Sequence record: DRR723986_6714
DNA length: 38,293 nucleotides
Strand: one strand, 5' to 3'
Shown: in pieces, positions 6,596 to 34,527 of the stretch
Layout of the letters: each line of letters starts with the position of its first letter
How positions within the stretch are numbered: position 1 is the stretch's first letter
The notes under the pieces: generated by a model
What the model was told of the DNA's origin: nothing
Databases searched by the model: none
What the model saw: the letters and a program-made list of their open reading frames with translations, nothing else
Program-made: the position numbers and the translations under genes

Positions 6596-6650
6596 GATGA
6601 GATGCAGCCGAGGAGTTCGGCTGCATTCCAAAAATTCGAGGGAGGCTCGA

Positions 6651-7715
6651 ATGTCCAAATTTCACTACGGTGTTTTTGTCGGCCGCTTTCAGCCGTTGCA
6701 TGCTGGCCATGAGGCCGTCATCAGATCTGCGCTGGAACAAGTCGATACGCTGATCGTACTGATCGGGTCTTCCGGTCAGGCGCGCACCCCGCGAAATCCC
6801 TTCACTTGCGCCGAACGCGAAGAAATGTTCGCAAAGGTGTTCAAGCACGAGCTGACCACCGGCCGTCTGATCCTGAAGCCTGTTTCGGATCATCCCTATT
6901 CGGATGCTGCCTGGTGCGCCGAGGTTCAGCGGGCCGTCAATGAAACCGTGCTTGCCGATTACAACAAGGGCGGTGTCGTTCTGCATGGTTTGCAGGATAT
7001 CGAGATCGCGCTTGCTGGCTATGGCAAGGACCGCACGAGCTACTATCTCAAGCTGTTTCCCGAATGGGGCAATGTGCAGTTGGCCAGCCAATACGGCACC
7101 TTCTCGTCGACAGACGTGCGCAGGCAGTTGTTCCAGCGCATCCCGGTCATATCGCGGTCGGTTCTGTCGGCCGGCGTGGTGGAGTGGCTGGAAGCCTTCG
7201 CTCTGACGGAGACCTTTCGTGCACTTCTGGAAGAGACCGAGTACCTGGATGCCTATCCCGGGCAATGGGGAAGGGGACCGTTCGTGACGGTGGATGCCGT
7301 CGTCATCCAGTCCGGAAACATTCTTCTGGTCGAGCGCGGCCAGGCTCCCGGCAAGGGATTGCTGGCTCTGCCCGGCGGTTTCCTTGATCCCAGTGAAAGC
7401 ATAAAGGATGCCGCGATCCGCGAGTTGAAGGAAGAAACCGCCATCAGCGACCACAAGGGAGAAATTCCCCCGGCGATGTTGGCGTCTTTCATAGACGGAA
7501 CCAAGACAAGGGTCTTCGACCATCCTGACCGGTCGTTGCGTGGCCGCATCATCACCCACGCGTTTCTGTTTCGCCTGCCCGAACGGCGCGAACTGTTTTC
7601 AGTCACGGGTGGCGACGATGCCAGGTCAGCCAATTGGCATCGACTTGGCGACCTTAAGTCCGAGCAGTTCTTCGAAGATCACTGGTCCATCATCCAGCTG
7701 ATGGCGGACCTGTAA
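6651..7715 (+). CDS. nadM: Bifunctional NMN adenylyltransferase / Nudix (ADP-ribose) hydrolase (NadM-Nudix)
   Basis: GRFQPLHAGH (HxGH), RNPFT, SSTDVR; Nudix box GFLDPSESIKDAAIRELKEETAI; RSLRGRIITHAF, GGDDA, FFEDH; RBS GGAGG. Confidence 0.93.
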   Translation: MSKFHYGVFVGRFQPLHAGHEAVIRSALEQVDTLIVLIGSSGQARTPRNPFTCAEREEMFAKVFKHELTTGRLILKPVSDHPYSDAAWCAEVQRAVNETVLADYNKGGVVLHGLQDIEIALAGYGKDRTSYYLKLFPEWGNVQLASQYGTFSSTDVRRQLFQRIPVISRSVLSAGVVEWLEAFALTETFRALLEETEYLDAYPGQWGRGPFVTVDAVVIQSGNILLVERGQAPGKGLLALPGGFLDPSESIKDAAIRELKEETAISDHKGEIPPAMLASFIDGTKTRVFDHPDRSLRGRIITHAFLFRLPERRELFSVTGGDDARSANWHRLGDLKSEQFFEDHWSIIQLMADL

Positions 7716-7771
7716 CAGCGCCCGCGGGGGAGGCCCGCAGGCAAACGCACCTGTCACGTGAGGAGTTCACA

Positions 7772-9178
7772 ATGACAAATCCACTTCTGGCGACCGACAG
7801 CTACAAGCAGTCGCATTTCAAGCAATACCCTCCGGAGGCCCGCAGGATTTCCGCTTACCTGGAAGCAAGGCCAAATCCGTTTTCGGACAGCGTCTTGTTC
7901 TTCGGGCTGCAAACCTACCTGAAGGACGTGCTTCTCAAGCCGATCACGGCATCGGACATCGAGGCGGCTGATCGGATCTGTGCTGCCCATGGCGTTCCCT
8001 TCAACCGGGAAGGTTGGGAACAGATCCTGACAGATCACGGTGGCCTGTTTCCGCTGGAGATCAAGGCGCTGCCGGAAGGAACACTGGCACCGACTGGTGT
8101 ACCGCTGGTTCAGGTGGAAAACACCGACGAGCGCATGCCCTGGCTGACGACCTGGGTGGAAACCGCCTTGTTGCGGTCGGTCTGGTACCCGTCGACGGTT
8201 GCCACGTTGTCTTTCAAGTGCAAGGAGATCCTGTATCGCGGTCTTCTGGACACGTCCGACGATCCAGACAGCCAGATCCCGTTCAAGCTGCACGATTTTG
8301 GCGCGCGCGGTGTATCTTCTGCCGAAAGCGCCGCTCTTGGCGGCATGGCCCATCTGGTCAACTTTGCCGGCACCGACACCATGGAAGCTCTGGAAGCGGC
8401 CATGACCTGGTACGGCGCGGATGTGGCGGGCTTTTCGATCCCGGCAGCTGAACACTCGACCATGACGAGTTGGGGCCGTGAGCGGGAAGTCGACGCGTAC
8501 CGGAACATGCTGATGCAGTTTGGCCGTCCCAATGCTCTGGTGGCGGTCGTTTCAGACAGCTACGATCTCGGCAATGCTGTCGAGAACCTGTGGTGCGGCC
8601 GGTTGAAGGACGAGGTGCTGAAATCGGGGGCAACGGTCGTCATCCGCCCGGATTCCGGCGACCCTGTCGAAATGCCGTTGAAGGTTATGGAAACCCTTTG
8701 GCAGCACTACGGCGGCTCGGAAAACAGCAAGGGTGCGCGCGTATTGCATCCGTCGGTTCGCGTCATTCAGGGTGACGGCATGAAGCTCGACACCATCAGG
8801 CAACTGGTGGAAGAGCTGGTGCGTCGCAATTGGTCAGTCGACAACATCGCCGTCGGAATGGGCGGGGGACTGTTGCAGCAGGTCAACCGGGACACGATGC
8901 GCTTTGCCATGAAGGCAAATGCGATGAAAACCGCTGATGGTACCTGGCGCGATGTCTCCAAGAACCCGGCGACCGATCCCGGCAAGGCCTCCAAGGCCGG
9001 TCGGCAGGCGACGGTCCTGGAAAACGGAGTGCTGAGCGCGGCTCGTCTCGAAGCGGTTGGCGGCAGAACCGATCAGTTGCAGAAGGTCTACCGCAATGGC
9101 GTGCTGGTGAAGGACTGGACTTTCGAAGAGGTACGCGCTCTGGCCCATAAGCACCTGTTGGAAAGGGTGGCGAGCTGA
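7772..9178 (+). CDS. nadV: Nicotinamide phosphoribosyltransferase (NadV/NAMPT type)
   Basis: TDSYKQSHFKQYP, LHDFGARG, GTDT, SIPAAEHS, VSDSYD, IRPDSG, IQGDG motifs; RBS GAGGAG. Confidence 0.88.
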   Translation: MTNPLLATDSYKQSHFKQYPPEARRISAYLEARPNPFSDSVLFFGLQTYLKDVLLKPITASDIEAADRICAAHGVPFNREGWEQILTDHGGLFPLEIKALPEGTLAPTGVPLVQVENTDERMPWLTTWVETALLRSVWYPSTVATLSFKCKEILYRGLLDTSDDPDSQIPFKLHDFGARGVSSAESAALGGMAHLVNFAGTDTMEALEAAMTWYGADVAGFSIPAAEHSTMTSWGREREVDAYRNMLMQFGRPNALVAVVSDSYDLGNAVENLWCGRLKDEVLKSGATVVIRPDSGDPVEMPLKVMETLWQHYGGSENSKGARVLHPSVRVIQGDGMKLDTIRQLVEELVRRNWSVDNIAVGMGGGLLQQVNRDTMRFAMKANAMKTADGTWRDVSKNPATDPGKASKAGRQATVLENGVLSAARLEAVGGRTDQLQKVYRNGVLVKDWTFEEVRALAHKHLLERVAS

Positions 9179-15094: not shown

Positions 15095-15307
15095 CGTGTA
15101 ATGCAGGTGGCGTGGCCGTCCGGCATCGCCGGATGGCCCGTCAGGAAAGGCCTGCGAATGCCTGCAGGCCGGAATCTTGAACATTTTTAGAATGATTTTT
15201 TTGAACTAAGTGCGTTTAGTGGATCGCAGTTGCTTCAAGTCAAGGCTGGACTAGTGCTACATGAGGCACAATCTAATACGAGCGCTGACATACGGACCAA
15301 GATTGAC

Positions 15308-16120
15308 ATGAACGTACTTGCCAAACCCGCCGACCTCGAAGCTGCCGCCCCGGCTGGCGCTTTCGTCGAGGAAGTGAAATCCGTCCAGCATTACACGGAC
15401 CGCCTGTTCCGCTTTCGCATGACACGTCCGGCGAGCTTCCGCTTCCGGTCCGGGGAATTCGTGATGATCGGTCTGATGATCGACGGCAAGCCGCTCTATC
15501 GCGCTTATTCCATCGCCAGCCCGGCATGGGACGAAGAGCTCGAGTTCTTCTCCATCAAGGTTCCGGACGGCCCGCTGACGTCTCATCTTCAGAAGATCCA
15601 GCCGGGTGATGCCGTGCTGATGAAGAAGAAGCCGACCGGCACGCTGGTGAACGATGCCCTCATCCCCGGCAAGCGCGTCTACATGTTCTCCACCGGAACC
15701 GGCATCGCACCGTTTGCGAGCCTGATCCGTGACCCGGACACCTACGAAAAATTCGACCAGGTGATCCTGACCCATACCTGCCGTGAAGTTTCCGAGCTGA
15801 AATACGGCGAGGACCTCGTGCAGGAAACCATCAACGATCCGCTGATCGGTGAGTTCGCAAAGGACAAGCTTGTCCATTACACCTCCGTGACCCGGGAAGA
15901 CTTTCCGCGTCAGGGCCGTATCACCGATCTGATCAAGTCCGGCAAACTGTTTGAAGACCTCGGCGTGCCGCCGCTCGATCCCGCCGTTGACCGCGGCATG
16001 ATCTGCGGTTCCATGGACATGTTGAAGGACACCAAGGCGCTTCTGGAAGAAGCAGGCCTCACCGAAGGTGCAAACAACAAGCCGGCAGAGTTCGTTGTCG
16101 AGCGTGCGTTTGTCGGCTGA
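15308..16120 (+). CDS. fpr: Ferredoxin--NADP+ reductase (bacterial subclass I)
   Basis: FRSGEFVMIGL, RAYSIAS, DGPLTSHLQ, STGTGIAPF, MICGS, VERAFVG. Confidence 0.96.
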   Translation: MNVLAKPADLEAAAPAGAFVEEVKSVQHYTDRLFRFRMTRPASFRFRSGEFVMIGLMIDGKPLYRAYSIASPAWDEELEFFSIKVPDGPLTSHLQKIQPGDAVLMKKKPTGTLVNDALIPGKRVYMFSTGTGIAPFASLIRDPDTYEKFDQVILTHTCREVSELKYGEDLVQETINDPLIGEFAKDKLVHYTSVTREDFPRQGRITDLIKSGKLFEDLGVPPLDPAVDRGMICGSMDMLKDTKALLEEAGLTEGANNKPAEFVVERAFVG

Positions 16121-16132
16121 GTCGGCAACGGC

Positions 16133-16147
16133 TTAATCTGTTATTAA
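16133..16147. promoter_or_regulatory. CtrA-like box TTAA-N7-TTAA upstream of neuB-like gene
   Basis: TTAA TCTGTTA TTAA, an exact match to the consensus spacing. Confidence 0.5.
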
Positions 16148-16364: not shown

Positions 16365-17228
16365 ATGATCTCCGACAGTCGAACCTATGTGATTGCCGAA
16401 ATCGGTATCAACCATAATGGCGATATCGACCAGGCCCTCGAAATGATCCGCAAGTCGAAGGAGGCCGGGTGCGACGCAGTCAAGTTTCAAAAGCGTACGA
16501 TCGACGTCGTCTATTCCGCTGAAGAGCTGGCACGTCCCCGTGAAAACGTCTTCGGCGCAACGAACGGCGATCTGAAGCGCGGTCTGGAATTCGGCAAGGC
16601 CGACTACGACCGCATCGACAAGCTGTCGAAGGAACTGGGCATCGACTGGTTTGCCTCGCCATGGGACGAAGGGTCAGTCGATTTCCTGCTGGACTACGAC
16701 ACACCCTATATCAAGGTCGCTTCCGCGATGGTGACCGATCGGGATTTCCTGGAGTATTGCGCTCGCAGTGGCCGGCCCTTGCTGGTTTCCACCGGCATGA
16801 GCGACATGGCAATGGTGAAGAGCTTCGTTGACGTGATCGAGCGCTCCGGCGGCGAGATCGCCTGCCTGTACCACTGCACCTCCACCTATCCGACGCGCGA
16901 TGACGAGATCAATCTGCTCGGCATTTCGACCCTGAAGGACGCTTTCCCCCATCTGAAGATCGGTTTTTCCGGTCATGAAGAAGGTATCCTGCCAAGCGTC
17001 TGTGCCGCCGCTCTTGGGGCGTGTTCCATCGAACGGCATGTCACGCTGGATCGCTCGGACTGGGGGTCCGACCAGAAGGCGTCGCTTGAAATGCCGGAAG
17101 TCGCTGAGCTGGTTTCACAGGTGCGCCGTGTGGAAGTGGTCCGGGGTGACGGGGTTCTGCGCTTCTATGAAGACGAGAAGCCGATTGCGGAAAAGCTTCG
17201 CCGGAAAGTCACGCTGCAGGCGGCGTGA
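16365..17228 (+). CDS. N-acetylneuraminate/nonulosonate synthase family protein (NeuB-like, no C-terminal AFP/SAF domain)
   Basis: IAEIGINHNGD, DAVKFQKR, KVASA, STGMS, HCTSTYP, GFSGHE, IERHVTLDR..WGSDQKASLE; only 287 aa. Confidence 0.93.
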   Translation: MISDSRTYVIAEIGINHNGDIDQALEMIRKSKEAGCDAVKFQKRTIDVVYSAEELARPRENVFGATNGDLKRGLEFGKADYDRIDKLSKELGIDWFASPWDEGSVDFLLDYDTPYIKVASAMVTDRDFLEYCARSGRPLLVSTGMSDMAMVKSFVDVIERSGGEIACLYHCTSTYPTRDDEINLLGISTLKDAFPHLKIGFSGHEEGILPSVCAAALGACSIERHVTLDRSDWGSDQKASLEMPEVAELVSQVRRVEVVRGDGVLRFYEDEKPIAEKLRRKVTLQAA

Positions 17229-17246
17229 GACAATTGAGGTATTGGT

Positions 17247-17277
17247 GGGCTGACCTGAACCGGTCGGCCCTTTTTTT
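17247..17277 (+). terminator. Rho-independent terminator inside the neuB cluster
   Basis: GGGCTGACC-TGAACC-GGTCGGCCC-TTTTTTT. Confidence 0.75.
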
Positions 17278-17292
17278 GTTCAAGAGCCATTT

Positions 17293-18042
17293 ATGTCCAT
17301 CATTGACCGCTGCCTGAATCTGTACCGGGGGGAGAGCTATTATGTGGCTTATCCAGCCCGGCCGCTCCCGCAGGACTATTGGGAAGCAAAGACGGATCCG
17401 GACGGCAAGGTCAGGGACATTGAAGCCGAGCGTGATCAGCGCAAGGAAGATGTTCGCTATATCGCGGACTACGTCAACGCACGGTCGCCGGGACGAGTGC
17501 TTGATATCGGCTTCGGCCTTGGCGAACTGCTTGAGCAGCTCACGGGCAAGAACGAGTGTTTCGGCCTGGATCCTTCCGAGAAGGCGGTAGAGGTCGCTCG
17601 CCAATGGTGTTCGGCCGAGCTTCGGCACGGTGTTCTGGAGAAGGGGACGTTTCCTTCAAGCACGTTCGATGTGGTGACCGCCAACCATGTCATCGAGCAT
17701 GTCGACGAGCCGATTCCCTTTGTTGAAACCATCTTCGAGATCCTGAAACCGGGTGGTGACTTCATTTGTGGCACGCCGAATTTCGCTTCAGCGGCCGCCC
17801 GGGTCTACGGTGATCGTTTCCGGTTGCTGCATGACCCAACTCATGTGAGCCTGTTCTCTGACGATTCTCTTGTCAGGCTGCTGCGTGACACGGGATTCCG
17901 CATCGAAATGGTCGAATATCCCTATTTCGGAACGCGTTTTGCCACGCGCGAAACGTTCGACAGCATGGTACGGGCCGACGCGGATGTGTCGCCGGCGTTC
18001 TGGGGATCTTTCGTAACCGTGTTCGCGCGCAAACCAGAGTGA
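17293..18042 (+). CDS. Class I SAM-dependent methyltransferase
   Basis: VLDIGFGLG motif I, FDVVTANHVIEHV, LKPGG, TPN, PTHVSLFS. Confidence 0.88.
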   Translation: MSIIDRCLNLYRGESYYVAYPARPLPQDYWEAKTDPDGKVRDIEAERDQRKEDVRYIADYVNARSPGRVLDIGFGLGELLEQLTGKNECFGLDPSEKAVEVARQWCSAELRHGVLEKGTFPSSTFDVVTANHVIEHVDEPIPFVETIFEILKPGGDFICGTPNFASAAARVYGDRFRLLHDPTHVSLFSDDSLVRLLRDTGFRIEMVEYPYFGTRFATRETFDSMVRADADVSPAFWGSFVTVFARKPE

Positions 18043-18073
18043 TCCCAGCTTCTCCGAGGTGGTTGAGCAGAAA

Positions 18074-19255
18074 ATGAAAATAGTAGCGGCCATTCCTGCC
18101 AGAGGCGGTTCCGTCGGTCTTCCGGGCAAAAACATCCGGCCCTTGAACGGCATTCCGCTTGTCGGCCGGACCGTGCGTGCCGCACGCGGGTCGCGTTTCG
18201 TGTCCGAAGTATTCGTTTCGAGCGATTCAGCGGAAATTCTGACAGTCGGTGAGAAATACGGTGCCAAATCCGTTTTGCGCCCGACCGAACTTTCCGGACC
18301 GACCGCGAGCTCGGAATCCGCGTTGATTCATCTTCTGCAGAACGAGCCAAGCCTTGTCAGCGAACCGCCGGACATTCTGGTTTTCCTGCAGTGCACGGCC
18401 CCATTCACGCAGGCGCATCATGTCGACCATGTTGTGGAAGCGCTGCTGGCCAAGAATGCGACCAGCGCGATCTCGGTGGTCGATGACCATGGCTTCTACT
18501 GGGAAGTCGGCCCCAGCGGTGAAGGCGTCGGTCTCAACCATGATCCGAGCAAACAACGCGTCCGCCGGCAGGATATCTCTGCAAGATACAGGGAAAACGG
18601 TGCCGTCTACGCCATGCGTGTTCCCGAATTCCTGGAAGCGGGCAACCGTTACTGTGGAAAGACGATCCTGGTTCCGGTGGATTCGACCTGGATCGAGATC
18701 GATACTTCGCAGGACTGGGACATGGCCGAGGCTTTCATCCGGTCAGAACCCTTCACCGGTTTCCTGACCGAGACTGAGACCCAGCCCTTGCGGGCGGTGG
18801 TGACCGCCTTTGCCGGTGTGCACACGGACAATACGGTTTTCGTCAATCGAGACGGCACGGAGTCAATCGTCTGCAACCGGTATGATGAAATCGGTCTCGA
18901 CCGTCTGCTTGGCCGCGGCATGATGTTGCTGATGCTGGATCGGGAAGAGGACAGTCTCGCTGTCCAGCGCGCCCGCAAGCTTGCCATGGATTACAAGCAT
19001 CATCTGTTCGACAAGATGGAAACCCTTTCGGACTGGCGCACCAAAAAGGGGCTGGAGTGGTCCGAGATTGCCTATATCGGCGCAGACATTGCGGATCTCG
19101 ACTGCATGAAGGCTTGCGGTCTGAGCATCGCGCCGCGCAATGCGCCGGCTGAAGTGAAGGCAACGGCAACGGTGGTTCTCGAAAGTGCCGGTGGTGCCGG
19201 CGTGCTGAATGAAGTCTCCGAGCTGCTGATTGCACGGGGCATGATTGCCAACTGA
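18074..19255 (+). CDS. Acylneuraminate cytidylyltransferase (NeuA) fused to a degenerate KdsC-like HAD domain
   Basis: IPARGGSVGLPGKN, LQCTAPF, RRQD, YRENGAVY, IEIDT..D; C-terminal VVTAFAGVHTDN...YIGADIADL; alternative GTG start at 18059. Confidence 0.9.
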   Translation: MKIVAAIPARGGSVGLPGKNIRPLNGIPLVGRTVRAARGSRFVSEVFVSSDSAEILTVGEKYGAKSVLRPTELSGPTASSESALIHLLQNEPSLVSEPPDILVFLQCTAPFTQAHHVDHVVEALLAKNATSAISVVDDHGFYWEVGPSGEGVGLNHDPSKQRVRRQDISARYRENGAVYAMRVPEFLEAGNRYCGKTILVPVDSTWIEIDTSQDWDMAEAFIRSEPFTGFLTETETQPLRAVVTAFAGVHTDNTVFVNRDGTESIVCNRYDEIGLDRLLGRGMMLLMLDREEDSLAVQRARKLAMDYKHHLFDKMETLSDWRTKKGLEWSEIAYIGADIADLDCMKACGLSIAPRNAPAEVKATATVVLESAGGAGVLNEVSELLIARGMIAN

Positions 19256-19371
19256 CAGGACCGTCATCACTCCAGGTGGTGACATGGAAGAATTTGGGTT
19301 CGGGGATCGCGATACGTGCAATTTGCAAACGTCTTCGCTCCCCGGGCACCTTGCGACTGAGAAGGTGAAAT

Positions 19372-20274
19372 ATGGCCGTAGACCCACTGCAAAAGAACCT
19401 TTCGGTGTTCGATACGCTGCAGCAGCTCGGCCTTGCATCCCTTGAAACCCAGAGTGTTTTTGCACCCCGGACCCGCGACAAGGAGGGTTTGACCGTCTAT
19501 CGCGACACGGTTTCAGGTGTTGTCTACATCAATGATTACTATGTCGGCGACGAGACCTACGAAGGCGCTGAACACCGCAAGGACGACTTCTACAAGCGCA
19601 TCGACTGGGACTACGAATACCAGCAGGATCAGTACCGGCGTCTGGATGCCTACAAGCAGTTTTATACGGGCAAGACGGTAACCGAGTTTGGATGCTGGAA
19701 AGGGCTTTTCCTGAGAGAGGCCGCCAGTCGTGGTGCCGATGTCACGGGGATCGAGCTGCACAGGGGCTACATCGAGGCGCTGGTTGCCGATGGCTATCGC
19801 TGCGTGGACAATCCAGGCCAGATCTCTCCGGCAACGCAGGATGCGGTCTTTGCCTTTCATGTGCTGGAGCATCTTCCCGACCCGCTTTCAACCTTGCGAG
19901 AGTTGCGCGCACTGCTGACGGACACCGGAACACTGATTGTCGAGGTTCCGCATGCTTCCGATTTCCTGTTGTCCAATCTTCAGAACGAAGCTTTCAAGAA
20001 TTTTACCCTCTGGAGCCAGCACCTTATTCTCCACACCCGCGAAAGCCTGAGGCGGCTGCTTGTCGCTGCCGGCTTTGCGGATGTTGTGATTGAAGGGGTG
20101 CAGCGGTATCCGCTTTCCAACCATCTCGGATGGCTTGCCAACGGCAAGCCCGGTGGCCACAAGTCAAGCCTGTCCGCATTGGAAACACCGGAACTCAGGT
20201 CGGCTTACGAGGCCGCGCTCCGCAAGATCGACGCGACCGATACGCTTGTTGCGATTGCCAGAAAGGCTCGCTAA
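19372..20274 (+). CDS. Class I SAM-dependent methyltransferase
   Basis: VTEFGCWKG motif I-like, DAVFAFHVLEHLPDP, IVEVPH, QRYPLSNHL; RBS AAGGTG. Confidence 0.85.
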   Translation: MAVDPLQKNLSVFDTLQQLGLASLETQSVFAPRTRDKEGLTVYRDTVSGVVYINDYYVGDETYEGAEHRKDDFYKRIDWDYEYQQDQYRRLDAYKQFYTGKTVTEFGCWKGLFLREAASRGADVTGIELHRGYIEALVADGYRCVDNPGQISPATQDAVFAFHVLEHLPDPLSTLRELRALLTDTGTLIVEVPHASDFLLSNLQNEAFKNFTLWSQHLILHTRESLRRLLVAAGFADVVIEGVQRYPLSNHLGWLANGKPGGHKSSLSALETPELRSAYEAALRKIDATDTLVAIARKAR

Positions 20275-20346
20275 GGCGGAGCGGCCAGTTCAACAAACGT
20301 TCGCACTGCTTTGCCGCAGGTTCACTGGCAGCGCCTGCAAAGCTTT

Positions 20347-22203
20347 CTACAGGCCCAGCCGTTCGTTCCGTTTGCCAGGATAACCGGCTGCCAGTTCTTC
20401 ACGCATGACCTGAATGACCTGCGGTACCATCTCCACCGTCGGATGCGTCTCGTCGATGTAGATGTACTTCATGCTTGGATACCAGGGCGGATTGGCCTGG
20501 CCGAGCAACAGGGCGGGTTCCACCGGGCCGAAGCGCACGCAGGGAACGCCAAGAATGCCCGCCATGTCTGCAACACTGGTGTTTGCCGAAACCACAACAT
20601 CGCAAATGGCGGTCAGGTCAGCGGCCGCCATCAGGTCGTTGAAGAGATCGACGTCCGGGAAATAGGTGAACTTTCCTTCCGAGCGGGCCACCAGAAAGTC
20701 GAGCTCCTTTTGCAGGGCCATGTACTGAAGATTGACGTAGATCGCGTCTTCAGCATCAAGGATCGGCGCAAAATCAGGCGCGGACAAGTAATAGCGCGCG
20801 CGGTATTTTTCCAGGTTCCGGGAGCGCCAGGAGACGCCGATAATCGGTTTCTTGTCGGCGTCCGGCAGCCTGCCGAGATATTCGCGGGCCTTTTCCTGGT
20901 TGAATTTGTAGACCGGGTAGGGGGCCTTCTTAAAGCTCTCGAAATCCCGCCGGAAATAGCGTGCAATATCGACCATGTTGGCCGTTATGTCGTAATCCGC
21001 ATCCTCCGGGGCCTGGTCGTCCTTTGGCGTGCCGGGCCTGACAAGGATCTCCGGAAACGAATTCTGGAAGAAGGGAACGGACTTCGCCGACACTTCGAGA
21101 ATGAGCTTTTTCGCTCGCGCCTGGATATCGAGAAACATCGTGCCGCACTTGAGCGCGTCACCAAGCCCCTGGTCGCCCCAAAGCAGCACCGTCTTGTCCG
21201 AGATATCCTCGCCTTCCCATTCCGGCTTTGGAAACTCACGTCGTTGGGAGGTTGCTTTCTTGTCTTCAAAGCGGGCGGCGTGAATGTCCCAACCCGTTTC
21301 GAGGTTCCCCATCGACAGATAGGCGAGCGACAGGTTCCAGTCGAGGCCGGAAATCACGCCACCAGGCGCTTCCTCCTTTGCCTTCTGCAGAATGTCGATA
21401 CTGTCCTGTCCGCGCCCGAGCATCAGGTAATGCACCCCAAGCGTGACCTTGCAGTGATAGTTGCCCGGTGTGCCTCTGACGGCCTCTTCGGCGTATTTCA
21501 GGCCCTCGTGTGCCCTGGAGATCGAGAACAGGACGCGGGCCTTTTCGTGGAGCAGGAGCGGGTTGTCTTTGAAGCGCTCCAGGGCCTTGTCGATCGCCTC
21601 GAGCGAGGCGTCGAACTGTTTCAGTTCAAGGCGGCAACGGGCCTGTTCGATGCAGTTCTCGACGTTGTCCGGTGCGAGTATTTCCGCGCGTTTGAAGAAG
21701 GTAAGCGCTTCCTCGAAACGGTTGTTCTTGCGCAGAAGCAGGCCATAGTTCGTATAAACTTCGCCGTGGTTCGGATTGGAGAGAAGCAGGCTCTTGAAGA
21801 TCGCTTCCGCTTCTTCAACCCGTTGCAGTCCGGTCAGCGCAATTGCCTTGATGTTGAGCGCCTCGCGCTCCTTCGGGTTGAGCGACAGGGCTTTTTCCGA
21901 AACGGCGAGCATGCTTTCCGAATCCGTTCCGATGTCCATCATCGCTCGGGCGAGGTTGGCATAGAACGACGCCTGGTTCGGATTCTGCGCAATTGCCTTC
22001 TGGATGTATTCAACGGCCTTTTTGGGAGATCCCAATTGCCTGTAGGTCACGCCTAGCAGATTGAGCGCATCCGGATTGGTCGGCGCCTTTTTCAATACCA
22101 GCTTGTAGCACCGCTGCGCCTTTTCGATCTCTCCGGACTGATGATAGGACAGCCCCTTGACGAGCTTTTCGCGTAAAGGATTTGGAGCGGTTTGCGTGGC
22201 CAT
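20347..22203 (-). CDS. TPR-repeat protein with C-terminal GT-B (GT9-like) glycosyltransferase domain, FlmG-like
   Basis: N-terminal TPRs (NPDALNLLGVTYRQLG, YTNYGLLLR); W..EDISDKTVLLWGDQGLGD, IGVSWRS, VNLQY, DVVVSANTSVADMAGILG, PPWYPS. Confidence 0.8.
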   Translation of the reverse strand: MATQTAPNPLREKLVKGLSYHQSGEIEKAQRCYKLVLKKAPTNPDALNLLGVTYRQLGSPKKAVEYIQKAIAQNPNQASFYANLARAMMDIGTDSESMLAVSEKALSLNPKEREALNIKAIALTGLQRVEEAEAIFKSLLLSNPNHGEVYTNYGLLLRKNNRFEEALTFFKRAEILAPDNVENCIEQARCRLELKQFDASLEAIDKALERFKDNPLLLHEKARVLFSISRAHEGLKYAEEAVRGTPGNYHCKVTLGVHYLMLGRGQDSIDILQKAKEEAPGGVISGLDWNLSLAYLSMGNLETGWDIHAARFEDKKATSQRREFPKPEWEGEDISDKTVLLWGDQGLGDALKCGTMFLDIQARAKKLILEVSAKSVPFFQNSFPEILVRPGTPKDDQAPEDADYDITANMVDIARYFRRDFESFKKAPYPVYKFNQEKAREYLGRLPDADKKPIIGVSWRSRNLEKYRARYYLSAPDFAPILDAEDAIYVNLQYMALQKELDFLVARSEGKFTYFPDVDLFNDLMAAADLTAICDVVVSANTSVADMAGILGVPCVRFGPVEPALLLGQANPPWYPSMKYIYIDETHPTVEMVPQVIQVMREELAAGYPGKRNERLGL

Positions 22204-22328: not shown

Positions 22329-22754
22329 TTATTGCCGGCGGAACTGCTGCGACTGGAATTGCTGGCGTTGGTATTGTTGCGGCTGACCCCGCTGCGGCCG
22401 GTAGTCTTCGCGCTGGTATTGCTGGCGCTGATAGTAGGACCTGTTTTGCGGCAAGCCCAGCCGGCGTTGTCTTTCAAGTTGCAAAAGGCGAACTCTTTCT
22501 TCGCGCAATTGCTGAACGCGCTGCGCTTCTTCCAGTTCACGCCTTTCCTGTGCCAGTCGTTGTCGCTCGAGCTCCAGAATCAACATCTGCTGCTGCAGAA
22601 GCGATTGATTGAGTCGCTGTTGCTCGTCGGTGAGCAGGGGGGCAGACGGCAGTTGGATGTTCTGCGAGGACTGCGCGCGAGCGACCGTTGCGGGCGCAAG
22701 GACCGCAAACAACAGGAAAAGTGCCGCAGCTTTTTTGGTCGCGGAGCGAAACAT
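22329..22754 (-). CDS. Secreted Gln/Arg-rich coiled-coil hypothetical protein
   Basis: Signal peptide MFRSATKKAAALFLLFAVLAPATVARA; Q-rich body and tail. Confidence 0.65.
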   Translation of the reverse strand: MFRSATKKAAALFLLFAVLAPATVARAQSSQNIQLPSAPLLTDEQQRLNQSLLQQQMLILELERQRLAQERRELEEAQRVQQLREERVRLLQLERQRRLGLPQNRSYYQRQQYQREDYRPQRGQPQQYQRQQFQSQQFRRQ

Positions 22755-23006
22755 GTCATCCATGCCCAGTGCCGGAGCCAGGGCTTTGCTGGCGGGCAAC
22801 ACGAAACCGGATCACTTCCGGTACGCCCGATCATCAGGATCCGCTCAACGGAACGGATCTGACCAATATACACGCTCACCTTTTGCAGGGCTGGTTTTCA
22901 GGAAAATTTGCCCAGATTTCTGGCAAGAGTTGCAATTGTGGTGAATCGGATCACGGCAAAGTAGTGAAAATTGCGGCAACCGGATCTGGAGGTAAGCAAA
23001 GGAAAA

Positions 23007-26288: not shown

Positions 26289-28061
26289 CTAGAGTTTGTA
26301 CGCGGTCCGGAAGCCACCCCAGTGACGGCCCTGAACGATGATCGGCGCGTCGATCTCCTTCATCCAGACGATATTGCCGCCGCCCATGTCCCGGGCATAG
26401 GACTGGATCAGGAAGGGGCGCGTGTTGCGTGCCGCGCTGAGGCCGGCCCGGTCATCAAAGATGCGCTTGTTGCGGCAGTTGGCGGTGTTCCAGGCAACAT
26501 CATCCGGTTTTTGCGGCTTCGAGTAGATCAGATTGTGTACCGGCAGATAACCGTTGCGATCGACCGAGGCGCAAAAGGCCATACCCTTGCATTTGCCTAG
26601 GATTTCTTCCTGGATCGTTGGCAGGATCTTTTCCAGATGAGCCAACGCGCGCGTCGACACCTGCGGCGGGTTGGTGCCGGCTATGTGCTGGTAATTGGTA
26701 TCGAACAGGTCGTCCATGGTCAGCTGGCGCTGCGCGATAAGTTCTTCCATCGCGTTGGAAATGCGTGAAGCCCCGGTCTGGACGCGTTCTACCTCGACAG
26801 CGTGGCTTTCATGAATGGATGCGATCTTGCGCTCAAGGGCCGCCTGGAACCCGGCATCCTTGTTGACGAAGCAACCGTGGCAACCATGTTCGGAGACGGC
26901 GACGATGCGAACTTCCACCTGGCCGATCCCGGCGAGATCAAGACGGGCATTCATGCCCTGTTTCAGGTTGGAGCCACCTTCGGGCCGGAACAGCGTGCCG
27001 CCTTCCGAAATATCGTGGGTCTCGATCTGTGCGGATGTTCCGCCTGCTGTCACCGATCCGGAAATCTTGATCGGCAATCGGTCGTGCTGACGACGATCGC
27101 CGATTTCGGTCTGCCGGATCATCATGGTGAAGCGGGACTGCAGCGCTTTGGAAGCCGTGCTCATTTCCGCACCGGTTTCGCGCGCCAGCATGCCACCTTC
27201 TTCTGCTGCCGCAGCAGACTCCGTAATTGTCTGCGCGGTGCGCAGCACTTCCTGAACGAAGTCCGCCGTCTGCTGCGCCTGGTCACCGATCCGGTTCGTG
27301 GTCTCAACCTGGGTCTGAACCGCATCCTCGACCGCGGCAAAGCTGGGACGTATCCTGCCGATAACATCGATGATCTGGTTGACCGAGCCGAGGCTGAGTT
27401 CCGCTGACTGGTTGAGGCGGTCGATGTTGGCGACGATCTGTTCAGTTGCCGACTGGGTTTCCACCGACAGCGCCTTCACCTCGCTCGCGACAACGGAAAA
27501 GCCACGGCCGGCTTCGCCTGCGCGGGCAGCTTCGATGGTGGCGTTCAGGGCCAGCAGGTTTGTTTGCTTGGCAATGTCCGAAATCAGGCTGACGACATTG
27601 GCAATGTCATCGATCGCGTTCTTGAGCTCCAGAACACCCTGGTTGACCTGGGCCGCGACGTCGCGCGCCTCTTGTGCCAACTGGTTGGACACACCGACCT
27701 GCTGTCCGATTTCGCTGCTGGAGGTGGTGAGATCCTGAATGGACGTGGCCAGTCCCGAAGCGTTCTCATTGGCAACGGCCGATTGGTCCGCAAGCGACTG
27801 ACTGTCGCTGCGGATGGTCTCCAGCTTGTCCATCTGACTGACGAGCCGGTCCTGCACCTTCTCCGCCGCGGCGTTGATGGTCTTGGCCGCGACTTGCAGA
27901 TCGTCTTCCAGGCTGTCCAGTACGAAGCTCATCTGGCTGGCTGCCAGCTGCGCTTCCGGCTGGTTTCCGGAAGTATTGTCAGTTTCCTCAGGGGCAGGTA
28001 TCTTGTTGTTTAAATTATTGTATTCGTCTTTCTGCCTTGGTCTAAGTCGAAGAATGTTCAT
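26289..28061 (-). CDS. Soluble methyl-accepting chemotaxis protein with PilZ and a C-terminal extra domain
   Basis: [42 protein letters not shown] and DISEGG PilZ motifs; C-terminal FDTNY..IAGTNP...[10 protein letters not shown]...RHWGGFR; no TM segment. Confidence 0.9.
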
Positions 28062-28116
28062 TTGATTCTGTGCTTTCCAAACCCTAGACAATTGAAAGCA
28101 TTATCTATTGTTGGTC

Positions 28117-31210: not shown

Positions 31211-31242
31211 CCGCTGCAGGGCAACTTGTCCCGCAGCGGTTT
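31211..31242. terminator. Hairpin between convergent gor and GGDEF gene
   Basis: CCGCTGCAGGGC-AACTT-GTCCCGCAGCGG followed by TTT. Confidence 0.5.
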
Positions 31243-32861
31243 CATTCTGCAGGCCCTGACGCTGCCCGCCGCAGCGGCTTGGCTTCAGGGTCAGTCAACA
31301 CGCCGTCTGGTCCGACTTCCAGATCGAGTGAATCGGAGTAGAAGGAATACCGGCCCCGGCCGAGTTTCTTCGACTGGTATAGCGCGGTGTCCGAACGGGT
31401 GACGAGTTGTTCGGAAGTCGTTCCGTCCTCCGGGGCGATCGCGATGCCGACACTAAGGCCGATCTGCGCAATATCGCCGCTTGAGATCGGTACGGGCAAT
31501 TCGCCGGCAGCAACAAGAGCCCGGCAAAGTGTGTTCAAGGTTTCCCGCACAACACTGCCACGATAGATCACCATGAATTCATCGCCGCCGATACGGCAAA
31601 CCAGACCGGGCTTGCCGACGGCTTTGCTCAGGCGCTCCGCCATGGTCTTGATGACGATATCGCCCGCGGCATGTCCGAAGGTGTCGTTCACCGCCTTGAA
31701 CTTGTCCAGATCGCAGTGAATGACGGCAAAGGGCTTGTCCGGCAGGGTTTTGACCGAGGATTCCAGGACACGGTTGAACTGCAGGCGGTTCGCGAGCCCC
31801 GTTAACGTATCGTGCAGAGCCAGGTACCTGTTCTGGTGTTCGCTCGCCTGAAGGGATGTGGTCAGCTGGCCGATCCGCCAGGCAATACCGAACGCGAGGG
31901 CGCCAAGGGCAACACTCAGAACCACGATGACAGGGACGATGGTTGGCCAGATGGATTCACCGACGGTCTGGCTGTCCCAGCGAAAGGTTCCGAGCGGGTT
32001 GTCGTTCTGATCCTTGACAAGATGGCGCGGCCCTTTGCCGGGCACGCCTGCATCTTCCTCAAAACCGAAATTGGCGAAATTCAGCTGCGCGTTGAGCTGG
32101 CCGAGCAGATAGGCGTCAACGTAATGGGCTGACAGCAGCACGGTGGGAGGCCCGTCGGGCAAAGTCTCTTCATAGTCGTCCGGAATGATCGGCATCGCGC
32201 CGAATATGGCCGGTTTGCCGTCGATATGGACAAAACCCATGACGGCATATTCCCCGGGATCTGCTCCTTGCAGGGACTTGTGACCGAAACCGCCAGGCAC
32301 CCGCACACGGTTTTGCAGGTACAGCGCCTTCAGTTTTTCATGAACAATTTCAAGCTCCGGCGTTTCGGAGACGGGACGCCGGATGATGTGAGTATAGTCG
32401 GCGAAGGATTCAGCCAGAACGTCCCCGTTTCCGGAGATCAGCATTACCTTGCTGTGGCGATAGGTTGACCACAGGGTGTCGAAGCTGCTTCGAACGTAGT
32501 CGGGATCGAAATTGCGCACCAGCTTGAGCACCGACTGATCCGACGACGCGATGCCGATCTGTTCGCGAACGATGGTGCGAAGGTGATCTGCCAGCGTGCT
32601 CTGGAACAGACGTTCCTCGTTGGCGATGGCCTGCTGCCGGGAAGCTTGAGAGGCAACGAAACCGACGAACAGCAACGAAACGGACGTAACAGCAATCAGC
32701 AATCCGGCAAGCAGAAACGCCAGCCGGGAAATATGCTGCCGGGGAATTTTCGCGGCCTGGTCGCTATATCTACGCCTAAACTCGGTCAAGTTGAGATCCC
32801 GATTGGGTCTTTGTTTGTTATTCTGAATTCTTGCCACTAAAGAGTAAAGTGATTGTATCAA
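31242..32861 (-). CDS. Membrane diguanylate cyclase (periplasmic CHASE4-like + GGDEF), copy 1
   Basis: Two TMs; HDTLTGLANR, DLDKFKAVNDTFGHAAGD, RIGGDEF; start uncertain (TTG). Confidence 0.88.
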   Translation of the reverse strand: MIQSLYSLVARIQNNKQRPNRDLNLTEFRRRYSDQAAKIPRQHISRLAFLLAGLLIAVTSVSLLFVGFVASQASRQQAIANEERLFQSTLADHLRTIVREQIGIASSDQSVLKLVRNFDPDYVRSSFDTLWSTYRHSKVMLISGNGDVLAESFADYTHIIRRPVSETPELEIVHEKLKALYLQNRVRVPGGFGHKSLQGADPGEYAVMGFVHIDGKPAIFGAMPIIPDDYEETLPDGPPTVLLSAHYVDAYLLGQLNAQLNFANFGFEEDAGVPGKGPRHLVKDQNDNPLGTFRWDSQTVGESIWPTIVPVIVVLSVALGALAFGIAWRIGQLTTSLQASEHQNRYLALHDTLTGLANRLQFNRVLESSVKTLPDKPFAVIHCDLDKFKAVNDTFGHAAGDIVIKTMAERLSKAVGKPGLVCRIGGDEFMVIYRGSVVRETLNTLCRALVAAGELPVPISSGDIAQIGLSVGIAIAPEDGTTSEQLVTRSDTALYQSKKLGRGRYSFYSDSLDLEVGPDGVLTDPEAKPLRRAASGPAE

Positions 32862-32985
32862 CGAATACCTTAACAGGACGTGGGAGTATTAAAAAACTTA
32901 GGAGTTTTCGTGAGGTGTATCCTCAAAGGACACTGCCTTTTATAGTATTTATGACAATGTAATTTGCCGCTTTCGGCGGTGCCCG

Positions 32986-34527
32986 CTAGCGTGACCCCGG
33001 AATTGCTTGCAGATCCATCTGTTTGCGGGCCTTGGCAGCCTCGAGACTGTGCGGGCCTGCAAACTCATAGGCATTGCGGCCCTTATCCTTCGCCCGGTAT
33101 AGCGCCATGTCGGCCATGCGGATCAGATCTTTCTCGCTCGTGCCGGACTCTGGCGCGCTGGCAATGCCGATGCTGACACCGATGTCGACCTGTTGACCTC
33201 CACCAATGTCTATCGGCTCGGCAACCGACCGGCGGATTTCCTCGGCCAGTGCTGCAAGCCTGTCCCTGTCTGTATGCTTGGTGAAGAGGACAATGAATTC
33301 ATCTCCTCCAATCCGGCTGACGACACCATCCTTGCCGACCAGAAGCCGCATTCGGTCGGCAACAGTGCAGATGACCCGGTCACCGGCTTCATGCCCATAT
33401 GTGTCGTTCACCGGTTTGAAGCGGTCGAGATCACAAGCAAATATCGCAAATCCACGATCCGGCAGGCCATCCAGCGAGAAAGAGAGGCAGTCGGAAAAAT
33501 GATGCCGGTTCGGCAGCCCTGTCAGAGCGTCGTGTCGCGCAAAGTGGCGGTTCTTCCGTTCGCTTTCTTCAAGCGAGGCCGACAGACGGCTGATCTTCGT
33601 TGCAAGCGCGAAGGCGACGATTGCGATGATGGACGCCAACAGGACGATCAGCGGCAGGGCCATGATCCAGATTTCGCGACCCGGTTTGGAATGGTCCCAT
33701 TTGAAATAGCCGAACGTGGATCCGTCTGCCGCCTGCACAAGGTAATTCGTTGGGTGCTTGCGTTCAGGTTCACCTGGGAAAAACCGGAAATCCCTGTAGC
33801 CGAGTTGTTCGTTCAGTCCGGTCAGCCAGTCCTGATCTATGTAGACGGCATTGACCAGGATTGCCGGATAGTCGCCTTCCAGCCGGACATGACCTTCATC
33901 GGGTAGAACCGGTATGGCGCTGAGGAATGCTCGGGATCCGTCGATCAGGGCAAAGGCGGATTGAGACGTTTCCAGCAACGCGGACTGCGGCATGTACCAT
34001 TCGGCAAAAACGGAGTTGGAACCGTCCTGCCGCTTCCCGAAAGCCGCAGCCGTCTGTTCGGCAAGCTTCCGAACAAGATTTTCGGCCGGCAATTGCCGAT
34101 TTTCAATCAGGACATCGTCCCTTATTGCCTGCGCGATCAAGGTCCCGTCCGGCATCACGACGAAAGTCCGGTCGAGGTTGAAATCTTCCCAAAGGTCGCC
34201 GATCAGCTCGTCTTCGATGAACTCGCGGTCCAGAGGGGCCTGAAGGGCGTTGAAGGTATCGTCCCACTGAGCCATCGTCACCTGGTCTCGCGCGACCTGG
34301 CGGTGGATGTCCTTCAAGGTGTTGGTCAGGCGCATCTGCTCGGCTTCAAGGGCGCGCCTGTCGGCTTCGCCCCAGGCCATGTGGGCAATGAAGGTGAGGG
34401 AAGCGGTCGACAGGAAAATCACGAGCGCTGCAAGGCTGTAGATCCACACCTTGATCCGCCGGCCGGCTTCTGGAGCCTCCAGCCCTGGATGTGTTGCTTC
34501 AGACGTCTTTTTCTTTAAACGGAACAA
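32986..34527 (-). CDS. Membrane diguanylate cyclase (periplasmic CHASE4-like + GGDEF), copy 2
   Basis: Two TMs; AQWDDT (CHASE4-like), HDALTGLPNR, DLDRFKPVNDTYGHEAGD, RIGGDEF. Confidence 0.88.
   Translation of the reverse strand: MFRLKKKTSEATHPGLEAPEAGRRIKVWIYSLAALVIFLSTASLTFIAHMAWGEADRRALEAEQMRLTNTLKDIHRQVARDQVTMAQWDDTFNALQAPLDREFIEDELIGDLWEDFNLDRTFVVMPDGTLIAQAIRDDVLIENRQLPAENLVRKLAEQTAAAFGKRQDGSNSVFAEWYMPQSALLETSQSAFALIDGSRAFLSAIPVLPDEGHVRLEGDYPAILVNAVYIDQDWLTGLNEQLGYRDFRFFPGEPERKHPTNYLVQAADGSTFGYFKWDHSKPGREIWIMALPLIVLLASIIAIVAFALATKISRLSASLEESERKNRHFARHDALTGLPNRHHFSDCLSFSLDGLPDRGFAIFACDLDRFKPVNDTYGHEAGDRVICTVADRMRLLVGKDGVVSRIGGDEFIVLFTKHTDRDRLAALAEEIRRSVAEPIDIGGGQQVDIGVSIGIASAPESGTSEKDLIRMADMALYRAKDKGRNAYEFAGPHSLEAAKARKQMDLQAIPGSR

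Follow-up and report, generated by a model that had tools for sequence, protein, structure and literature searches.

An FlmG-like transferase and a swappable ulosonic acid cassette in Roseibium: a candidate module for flagellin glycosylation

The 38,293-nucleotide stretch of DNA from sequence record DRR723986_6714 (hereafter the window, meaning the whole stretch that was analysed) carries, between positions 16,365 and 22,203, four sugar genes that converge on a gene encoding tetratricopeptide repeats (TPR) joined to a glycosyltransferase (GT) of the B fold (GT-B). This module is real and conserved, and it probably represents FlmG-type flagellin glycosylation with a donor other than pseudaminic acid (Pse) or legionaminic acid (Leg) rather than a categorically new system. 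With a probability of roughly 0.6, the locus encodes a cytoplasmic flagellin O-glycosylation module in which an FlmG-like transferase is served by a swappable cassette, which here would supply a nitrogen-free, probably O-methylated ulosonic acid of the 2-keto-3-deoxynononic acid (Kdn) type.

In the proposed mechanism, NeuB would condense phosphoenolpyruvate with a phospho-aldose of central metabolism, most likely mannose-6-phosphate, to give Kdn-9-phosphate. A non-dedicated phosphatase would remove the phosphate, since the haloacid dehalogenase (HAD) domain fused to NeuA appears to be dead, and NeuA would then activate the sugar with cytidine triphosphate. Two methyltransferases, MT1 and MT2, may methylate hydroxyls of the sugar or of its cytidine monophosphate (CMP) form. 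Finally, the TPR domain would bind flagellin and the sugar would be transferred to serine or threonine residues, probably on three flagellins of 500 residues.

The five genes and the transferase

The five genes are listed below (SAM, S-adenosylmethionine).

16365..17228, + strand: neuB, short NeuB-family ulosonate synthase of 287 residues (PF03102, E 9e-70), without SAF/antifreeze domain
17293..18042, + strand: MT1, class I SAM-dependent methyltransferase of 249 residues (PF13489, E 1e-25)
18059 (GTG) or 18074 (ATG)..19255, + strand: NeuA-HAD fusion (PF02348, E 3e-22), the likely start being the ATG at 18074, which gives 393 residues
19372..20274, + strand: MT2, class I SAM-dependent methyltransferase of 300 residues (PF13489, E 2e-18)
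20347..22203, - strand: FlmG-like TPR + GT-B protein of 618 residues, convergent to the four + genes

A previous sequence-only reading had placed five genes here in this order and orientation. A reading of the window together with its frame list found all five frames intact and in agreement with these positions, strands and order. The cluster had also been described as devoid of genes for NeuC, PseB/C, LegB/C, a flippase or a polymerase, and none of the 37 window frames scanned matched these families. The guanine-cytosine (GC) content of the five-gene region is the same as that of the remainder of the window. Named relatives place the host in the Roseibium aggregatum group: the window NeuB is 97% identical to that of R. 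aggregatum IAM 12614. Genome G001 served as a stand-in for that of the host. The gene arrangement is not due to chance, because G001 has it too, at 98% identity across 11 kb, and six of the 39 transferase loci contain it in full.

The N-terminus of the transferase (approximately residues 1-285) is a TPR array matched by 21 TPR-type Pfam families, and the C-terminal 334 residues have no Pfam match. The AlphaFold model, built from a 31-row alignment (predicted local distance difference test score of 92), has GT9/GT-B enzymes as its top structural matches (Z 19.9, root-mean-square deviation of 3.2 Å over 260 residues). Alignment with a 596-residue FlmG of the Caulobacteraceae gave 25% identity over 552 columns (E 3e-35) and covered both the TPR and the GT parts, which, together with the GT-B model, supports the earlier assignment of an FlmG-like transferase. 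In addition, the transferase family and C. vibrioides FlmG (P0243) have 62 positions in common that are conserved in 90% or more of 41 rows; P0243 was reached via intermediate relatives and named by cluster look-up. Caulobacter FlmG was not among the best 120 matches of a query with a Rhizomicrobium-type homologue. One protein from a Roseibium metagenome-assembled genome (MAG; P0062) is labelled ‘glycosyltransferase FlmG’ at NCBI.

All 37 Roseibium genomes searched gave a transferase match (in one, which is 61% complete, the match spans the TPR part only), as did one of 24 further families in the order; a homologue of the GT domain occurs in 70 of 301 genomes of the class. In a FastTree phylogeny of 143 GT domains, rooted at the midpoint, the Roseibium sequences share a clade (0.99) with a single sequence from Stappia, placed among homologues from flagellar clusters and within a larger group (0.92) that includes C. 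vibrioides FlmG in another subclade. The second TPR-GT of G001 and the copies of Burkholderia and Komagataeibacter form a separate clade (0.99).

Several observations weaken the relationship to FlmG. The deep nodes of the GT tree are weak and its root is a midpoint, and some sequences outside the FlmG-holding group adjoin flagellins too. The TPR-GT9 family is broad, with up to 11 matches on single Azospirillum replicons, and its Burkholderia plasmid copies occur in a non-flagellar context. Moreover, the two characterised FlmGs are 43% identical to each other (10.1101/2022.03.25.485807), compared with 25% here. Architecture and gene context suggest that the transferase is FlmG-like, and the case for strict orthology is weaker.

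Exchange of the sugar genes and the flagellin context

The surroundings of the transferase were read in 40 stretches around 42 matches, and 39 loci from 36 genomes were counted after leaving out the partial match of G030, L102, and L103, which belongs to another family. Within 9 kb of the transferase, a NeuA-type gene was present in 35 of the 39 loci, NeuB in 31 and MT2, regarded as the most constant partner of the transferase gene, in 29. The window-type NeuB was found in nine loci, six of which have the full order NeuB, MT1, NeuA-HAD, MT2. Four loci have a 321-residue short NeuB with an intact HAD and a TylF-like methylase, in some cases with a B12 radical SAM gene, and 16 have a 607-residue NeuB, with a weak match to a TIM-barrel isomerase (PF01261), together with a GDP-mannose 4,6-dehydratase. 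A SAF-bearing NeuB with NeuC occurs in two loci; the NeuB type of L096 was set by tree and is not the window type. Among the eight loci without NeuB, three end early at the end of the contig or stretch, two have MT2 alone and one holds a lone paralogue; in the remaining two, a NeuB-family match lies just beyond the stretch read, beside PseB.

The sugar genes beside the transferase form a swappable cassette, of which at least five types were seen. For example, the transferases and MT2s of L090 and L092 are 92-93% identical (92% for the GT domain) whereas the neighbouring synthases differ, L092 having NeuB and MT1, and L090 a different NeuB and an intact HAD. The proposal of an undescribed system did not survive the comparison: rather than a lone system, the window holds one allele of a genus-wide locus, with a transferase of a described class and interchangeable sugar genes.

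Other cassettes of the series have features of their own. The 607-residue NeuB cassette (L071-L085, L087) is the commonest and also contains NeuA and MT2; the match of its NeuB to a xylose-isomerase-like TIM barrel is weak and lies at the C terminus, and its product could be a 9-deoxy, rhamnose-derived ulosonate. In L068, L069 and L163 (with a fragment in L090), a B12-dependent radical SAM gene is part of the transferase-linked cassette, alongside TylF-like or MT1 methylases. In G015 (L096, 5977-17828), the slot is occupied by two SAF-bearing NeuBs, NeuC, a thiamine enzyme, an AMP-binding enzyme and LuxC/LuxE-like genes. In L099 and L100 (G026 and G020), a second transferase paralogue adjoins PseB, NeuA and WbqC, and the usual slot is left with MT2 only.

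Flagellin is the quite probable target of the transferase, and this assignment gained support from gene context in Stappia and Motiliproteus. On the complete chromosome of a Stappia MAG (L157), three flagellins on one side and flgI on the other enclose NeuB, MT2, NeuA, a pyruvyl-transferase-like gene and the transferase; the NeuB is 65% identical to the window type and is the sole NeuB found in that genome. In Motiliproteus sediminis (L162, 6880-16797), a short NeuB, MT2, a pyruvyl-transferase-like gene, an intact HAD and NeuA come after fleQ-like genes and directly precede maf, flagellin, flaG and fliD, suggesting that in this species the same sugar genes supply a flagellin transferase of an unrelated kind. 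The best GT matches outside Roseibium come from four genomes, one of them Ca. Phaeomarinobacter ectocarpi, in which the GT gene adjoins flagellins of the Roseibium type. G001 itself encodes three flagellins of 500 residues with approximately 24% serine plus threonine, as well as one flagellin of another type with 328 residues. As an observation in its own right, the Motiliproteus locus is a Maf island with a non-Pse/Leg sugar.

Against a flagellar role stands the position of the cassette in Roseibium: it is far from flagellins in the window and in G001 (megabases apart in the latter), and none of the Roseibium loci read links it to flagellar genes. The transferase might instead modify a non-flagellar protein, or the cassette might feed lipopolysaccharide (LPS) or capsule with the transferase as a bystander. 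Such a role would agree with the frequency of TPR-GT9 proteins outside flagellar clusters, with the LPS heptosyltransferases that are the nearest GT folds, and with the NeuBs of the window type in Kiloniellaceae and Pelagibius, which stand in polysaccharide-like clusters with no such transferase on the DNA read; the NeuB clade is seen in clusters of this kind in L159, L160 and L364. It is nevertheless unlikely, considering the flagellar-cluster location in Stappia, the adjoining maf in Motiliproteus, the linkage of NeuA to the transferase in most Roseibium loci (35/39) and a cassette without flippase, polymerase or exporter. Furthermore, the cassette appears dispensable for the capsule of G001, because a separate capsule locus there has its own NeuB, NeuA fused to an intact HAD, and exporter. 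This capsule locus (L004; L005, 9274-19966; L006, 719-3523) has a low GC content and comprises a second short NeuB, NeuA with intact HAD, DUF6716 and an ABC exporter.

Identity of the sugar, its phosphate and its probable methylation

The window NeuB scores below the cut-offs for PseI and NeuB/LegI, TIGR03586 (200 of 340 bits) and TIGR03569 (235 of 400 bits), which reference copies pass. NeuB trees were built with FastTree, the final one including Brevundimonas-type LegI rows that a coverage filter had removed from the first. The window NeuB groups with SAF-less synthases carrying an FQKR motif (0.93-0.95; 0.99 for a wider group), from Acidobacteria, candidate phyla, Nonomuraea and Hymenobacter, and is placed apart from Caulobacter-type PseI and Brevundimonas-type LegI. 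PseB was above cut-off in 11 of the 61 genomes of the genus and in none of G001, G004, G008, G012, G024 and G035. LegB and NeuC were each found in 0 of the 5 genomes searched (including G001, G004, G012 and G035), PseC and LegC not having been searched genome-wide. The cassette NeuB is the sole NeuB found in G004, G012, G024 and G035. A synthase outside the Pse and Leg pathways, as had been anticipated, gains support both from the tree and from the nearest genomes.

The best 80 relatives of the window NeuB were taken, 65 of them from outside Roseibium, and an intact HAD phosphatase lies within 8 kb in 48 of these 65 loci, which argues for a phosphorylated NeuB product, as in the Kdn route from mannose-6-phosphate in Bacteroides and Prymnesium. 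Matches to a SIS_2 isomerase were weak and confined to three of five genomes, in frames of 294-323 residues, with none in G024 and G581. GmhA is approximately 200 residues long. A heptose route in Roseibium was rejected, as no GmhA-like gene was found in the five genomes. Mannose-6-phosphate as substrate and Kdn as product would be the simplest reading because amino-sugar genes and an isomerase are both missing, and the balance of the evidence leans towards Kdn as the sugar core.

Several points weigh against this assignment. It depends on gene context, as the NeuB trees contain no biochemically proven Kdn-9-phosphate synthase (those of B. thetaiotaomicron, Prymnesium and human are not among the rows). 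The genome-wide absences derive from relatives of the host, G001 standing in for its genome. In addition, the same NeuB clade is found elsewhere beside SIS isomerases or thiamine enzymes, where it probably makes other sugars. In L164 (7349-9365), L174 (7917-9891), L364 (1794-4018), L366 and L210, a SAF-less NeuB has an intact HAD phosphatase as well as a SIS isomerase for neighbours, with a thiamine-diphosphate enzyme in places, and the product of these loci may be a longer-chain or branched sugar.

The NeuA domain belongs by family to the CMP-ulosonate synthetases, and its best matches in the PDB are near-equal, namely the CMP-N-acetylneuraminate synthetase 6IFD and PpNeuA (9T4Z), with 1QWJ also matched. 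These comparisons bear on the possibility of a flagellin target with a sugar other than Kdn: NeuB would then use a different phospho-aldose (C5 or C7) or a free sugar, and the product would be an octulosonate, an ulosonate with ten carbons or a deoxy variant. Such a product would fit the five SIS-linked loci of the NeuB clade, the missing dedicated phosphatase and the lack of a proven Kdn synthase in the tree, and CMP-linked higher-carbon ulosonates have been reported from Magnetospirillum (10.64898/2026.04.20.719630). A non-Kdn sugar is still rather unlikely, since the cassette is without a SIS gene, the genomes have weak SIS_2 matches or none, and the NeuA domain fits PpNeuA nearly as well as its best match.

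The sequence-only reading had also taken the NeuA-HAD fusion as a sign of a Kdn-type pathway. The fusion is indeed present, but the HAD part lacks the catalytic residues and would provide no working phosphatase. This domain is related to PDB 3E81 and to NF058599 (similar to KdsC and Kdn-9-phosphate phosphatase), the latter matched with 79 bits for a cut-off of 180. Motif I reads TAFAG compared with xDxDG in active relatives. Among 71 aligned HAD domains, 18 are without the nucleophilic Asp of motif I, with motifs II and IV altered too, and every one of these is fused to NeuA and adjoins the transferase (nine rows come from numbered loci and nine from named ones, the genomes being partly shared). 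The Asp is kept in the other 53 of 53 rows, including the G001 capsule copy. The fused HAD domain is likely a pseudo-phosphatase, because its catalytic residues are lost. In an alignment with 3EWI, a mouse-type CMP-sialic acid synthetase domain with a structural, non-catalytic role, the same Asp is missing there too.

Searches of G004, G012, G024 and G035 revealed no intact KdsC-type phosphatase, which weighs against the proposed route; among the five genomes searched, the only intact copy is in the capsule locus of G001, where it could act in trans. In Prymnesium, Kdn is made although no dedicated phosphatase can be recognised (PMC6200933), so that a housekeeping phosphatase is the likely substitute. 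Alternatively, the phosphate could be retained, the product being a 9-phospho or methyl-phospho ulosonate in which MT1 caps the phosphate. The conservation of the dead HAD in 18 of 18 fusions, the missing KdsC-type enzyme in four of five genomes and the pairing of near-identical transferases and MT2s with NeuB and MT1 in L092, and with a different NeuB and intact HAD in L090, would suit such a product. We consider it very unlikely, since an intact HAD adjoins the MT1 relatives of L358, L360 and L364, dead fusions coexist with an intact stand-alone HAD in L090 and L094, and the cassettes without MT1 in L095, L097 and L157 are without HAD as well. The neighbours of MT1 in L358, L360 and L364 also led us to reject MT1 as a replacement for the phosphatase.

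Methylation of the sugar itself is fairly likely, with sugar O-methylation the likely function of both MT1 and MT2. A short NeuB is present on the DNA read in seven of the 11 closest metagenome relatives of MT1, and three of the other four are contigs below 3.3 kb. Relatives of MT1 or MT2 travel with short NeuBs with no flagellin transferase in view in L358, L360, L362-L366 and L440, which suggests that the two enzymes act on the sugar rather than on flagellin; for MT2, a short NeuB without the transferase is seen in L162, L364 and L440. When 401 genomes from across the phylum were searched, MT2 came up in three, and L439, one of its two outside matches, has no NeuB in 19 kb. The closest PDB matches are remote (E 1e-8 for MT1, 8e-4 for MT2), and an Atlas search matched the two proteins to generic methyltransferases only. 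O-methylation at the level of the CMP-sugar has been reported for other nonulosonates (10.64898/2026.04.20.719630). A point against full methylation is the Trp in the Gly-rich motif of the window MT2, at a position that is Gly in 23 of 26 aligned rows, and this change in the SAM-binding loop may impair the enzyme.

Flanking features and comparison with known systems

Two further features border or interrupt the cassette.

15230..16120, + strand: fpr, ferredoxin-NADP reductase (PF00970/PF00175)
17247..17270, + strand: terminator-like hairpin with T-run, between neuB and MT1

In most Roseibium loci, fpr is the left border regardless of the sugar genes, and it is probably a fixed edge of the variable cassette outside the pathway. 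The hairpin is a weak site, seven terminator-type hairpins being found in 6.6 kb compared with 7.7 expected from shuffles. A perfect TTAA-N7-TTAA box, presumably of the CtrA type, lies at 16133-16147, 12 nucleotides past the fpr stop and with a hairpin downstream. It is the sole one in the window (0.05 expected; 5 of 100 shuffles reach it), and is perfect in 2 of 32 regions after fpr, one of them the G001 copy of the window, and in 0 of 39 upstream of the transferase. CtrA control as in Caulobacter was not used as support, as the box is little conserved in relatives. Contigs from four RNA libraries of four studies span the five genes, and two RNA runs each have a contig beginning at 16304, close to a weak sigma-70-like site whose last position is 16296. 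Loose poly-A is present at both contig ends, contigs are no proof of transcription, and no claim is made from them.

Upstream of the transferase, 22329-22802 holds a Gln/Arg-rich frame of 157 residues with a signal-peptide-like start and no Pfam match. At 26289-28091, between gph and rpiA, a chemotaxis-receptor signalling domain is fused to a PilZ-like domain, and this gene is kept near the transferase in many Roseibium loci. The window also contains an NAD salvage pair at 6597-9178 (a NadM/Nudix-like nicotinamide mononucleotide adenylyltransferase followed by a nicotinamide phosphoribosyltransferase-type gene) and two CHASE4-GGDEF diguanylate cyclases in tandem at 31242-34527.

The closest known systems are the FlmGs of Caulobacter crescentus (FlbA, CCNA_01524) and Brevundimonas subvibrioides (Bresu_2406), which share with the window protein the TPR + GT-B architecture, a similar length (596 compared with 618 residues), the QGLGD and WxS motifs and a pairing with NeuB and NeuA. 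FlmG was reported as ‘confined to the Caulobacterales’ (10.1101/2023.12.03.569772), whereas Roseibium is outside this order. The Roseibium gene is also not at the flaF-flbT-flagellin position of the Caulobacteraceae loci read, and its sugar genes are clustered with the transferase and differ between species. The characterised FlmGs are described as using Pse or Leg (10.1101/2022.03.25.485807); by gene content, the Roseibium donor would be neither. The donor range of FlmG was posed as an open question in PMC7591256.

The cassette resembles the CMP-Kdn pathways of B. thetaiotaomicron (BT1713-BT1715) and Prymnesium parvum in its NeuB-family synthase, HAD-family domain, CMP-synthetase and absence of amino-sugar genes, but differs by its apparently dead HAD, the two added methyltransferases and the routing of the sugar to a protein transferase. 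Similar to the Maf islands of Aeromonas, Shewanella and Magnetospirillum, a variable ulosonate cassette would serve a flagellin transferase. Mafs are of the GT-A fold (10.1101/2023.12.03.569772), whereas the Roseibium transferase is a TPR/GT-B protein with no Maf_flag10/MptE-like match in a scan that detects Maf in L162. In Serratia marcescens KL1/KL2, capsule Kdn is made by neuA and neuB (PMC9000132); the NeuB there, with a sugar-phosphate isomerase domain, resembles the long NeuB of 16 of the 39 Roseibium loci, whereas the window NeuB is of the short type and the target in Serratia is the capsule. Literature searches on FlmG, Labrenzia flagellin, and flagellin with Kdn gave no such report by title or start of abstract, and none joining Roseibium, flagellin and glycosylation; subscription journals and preprint supplements were outside their scope and could list Roseibium orthologues.

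A wider reading is offered tentatively, at a little under even odds: the slot between fpr and flmG would be a flagellar ‘glyco-serotype’ locus, and the flagella of Roseibium and Stappia would carry a natural O-methylated Kdn-type coat attached by an enzyme of the FlmG class from outside Caulobacterales. Five or more ulosonate cassettes, nitrogen-free for the most part, would be exchanged before one conserved transferase, with a short NeuB and methylases or pyruvyl-transferase-like genes, a long NeuB and GDP-mannose dehydratase, or radical-SAM types.

Roseibium are common marine bacteria, often found with algae and corals. If the proposed function is true, the FlmG class would be extended, and the product would be the first natural Kdn-type flagellin glycan that the literature searches turned up. 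The cassette series, with L090 and L092 as an example, would offer a ready test of donor selection by GT-B enzymes, and R. aggregatum is a culturable host in which flagellin mass and motility would be an easy read-out for the widespread SAF-less NeuB clade and its methyltransferases. The cassette would then provide a variable surface coat on a swimming organelle, which, speculatively, could bear on recognition by phages and hosts.

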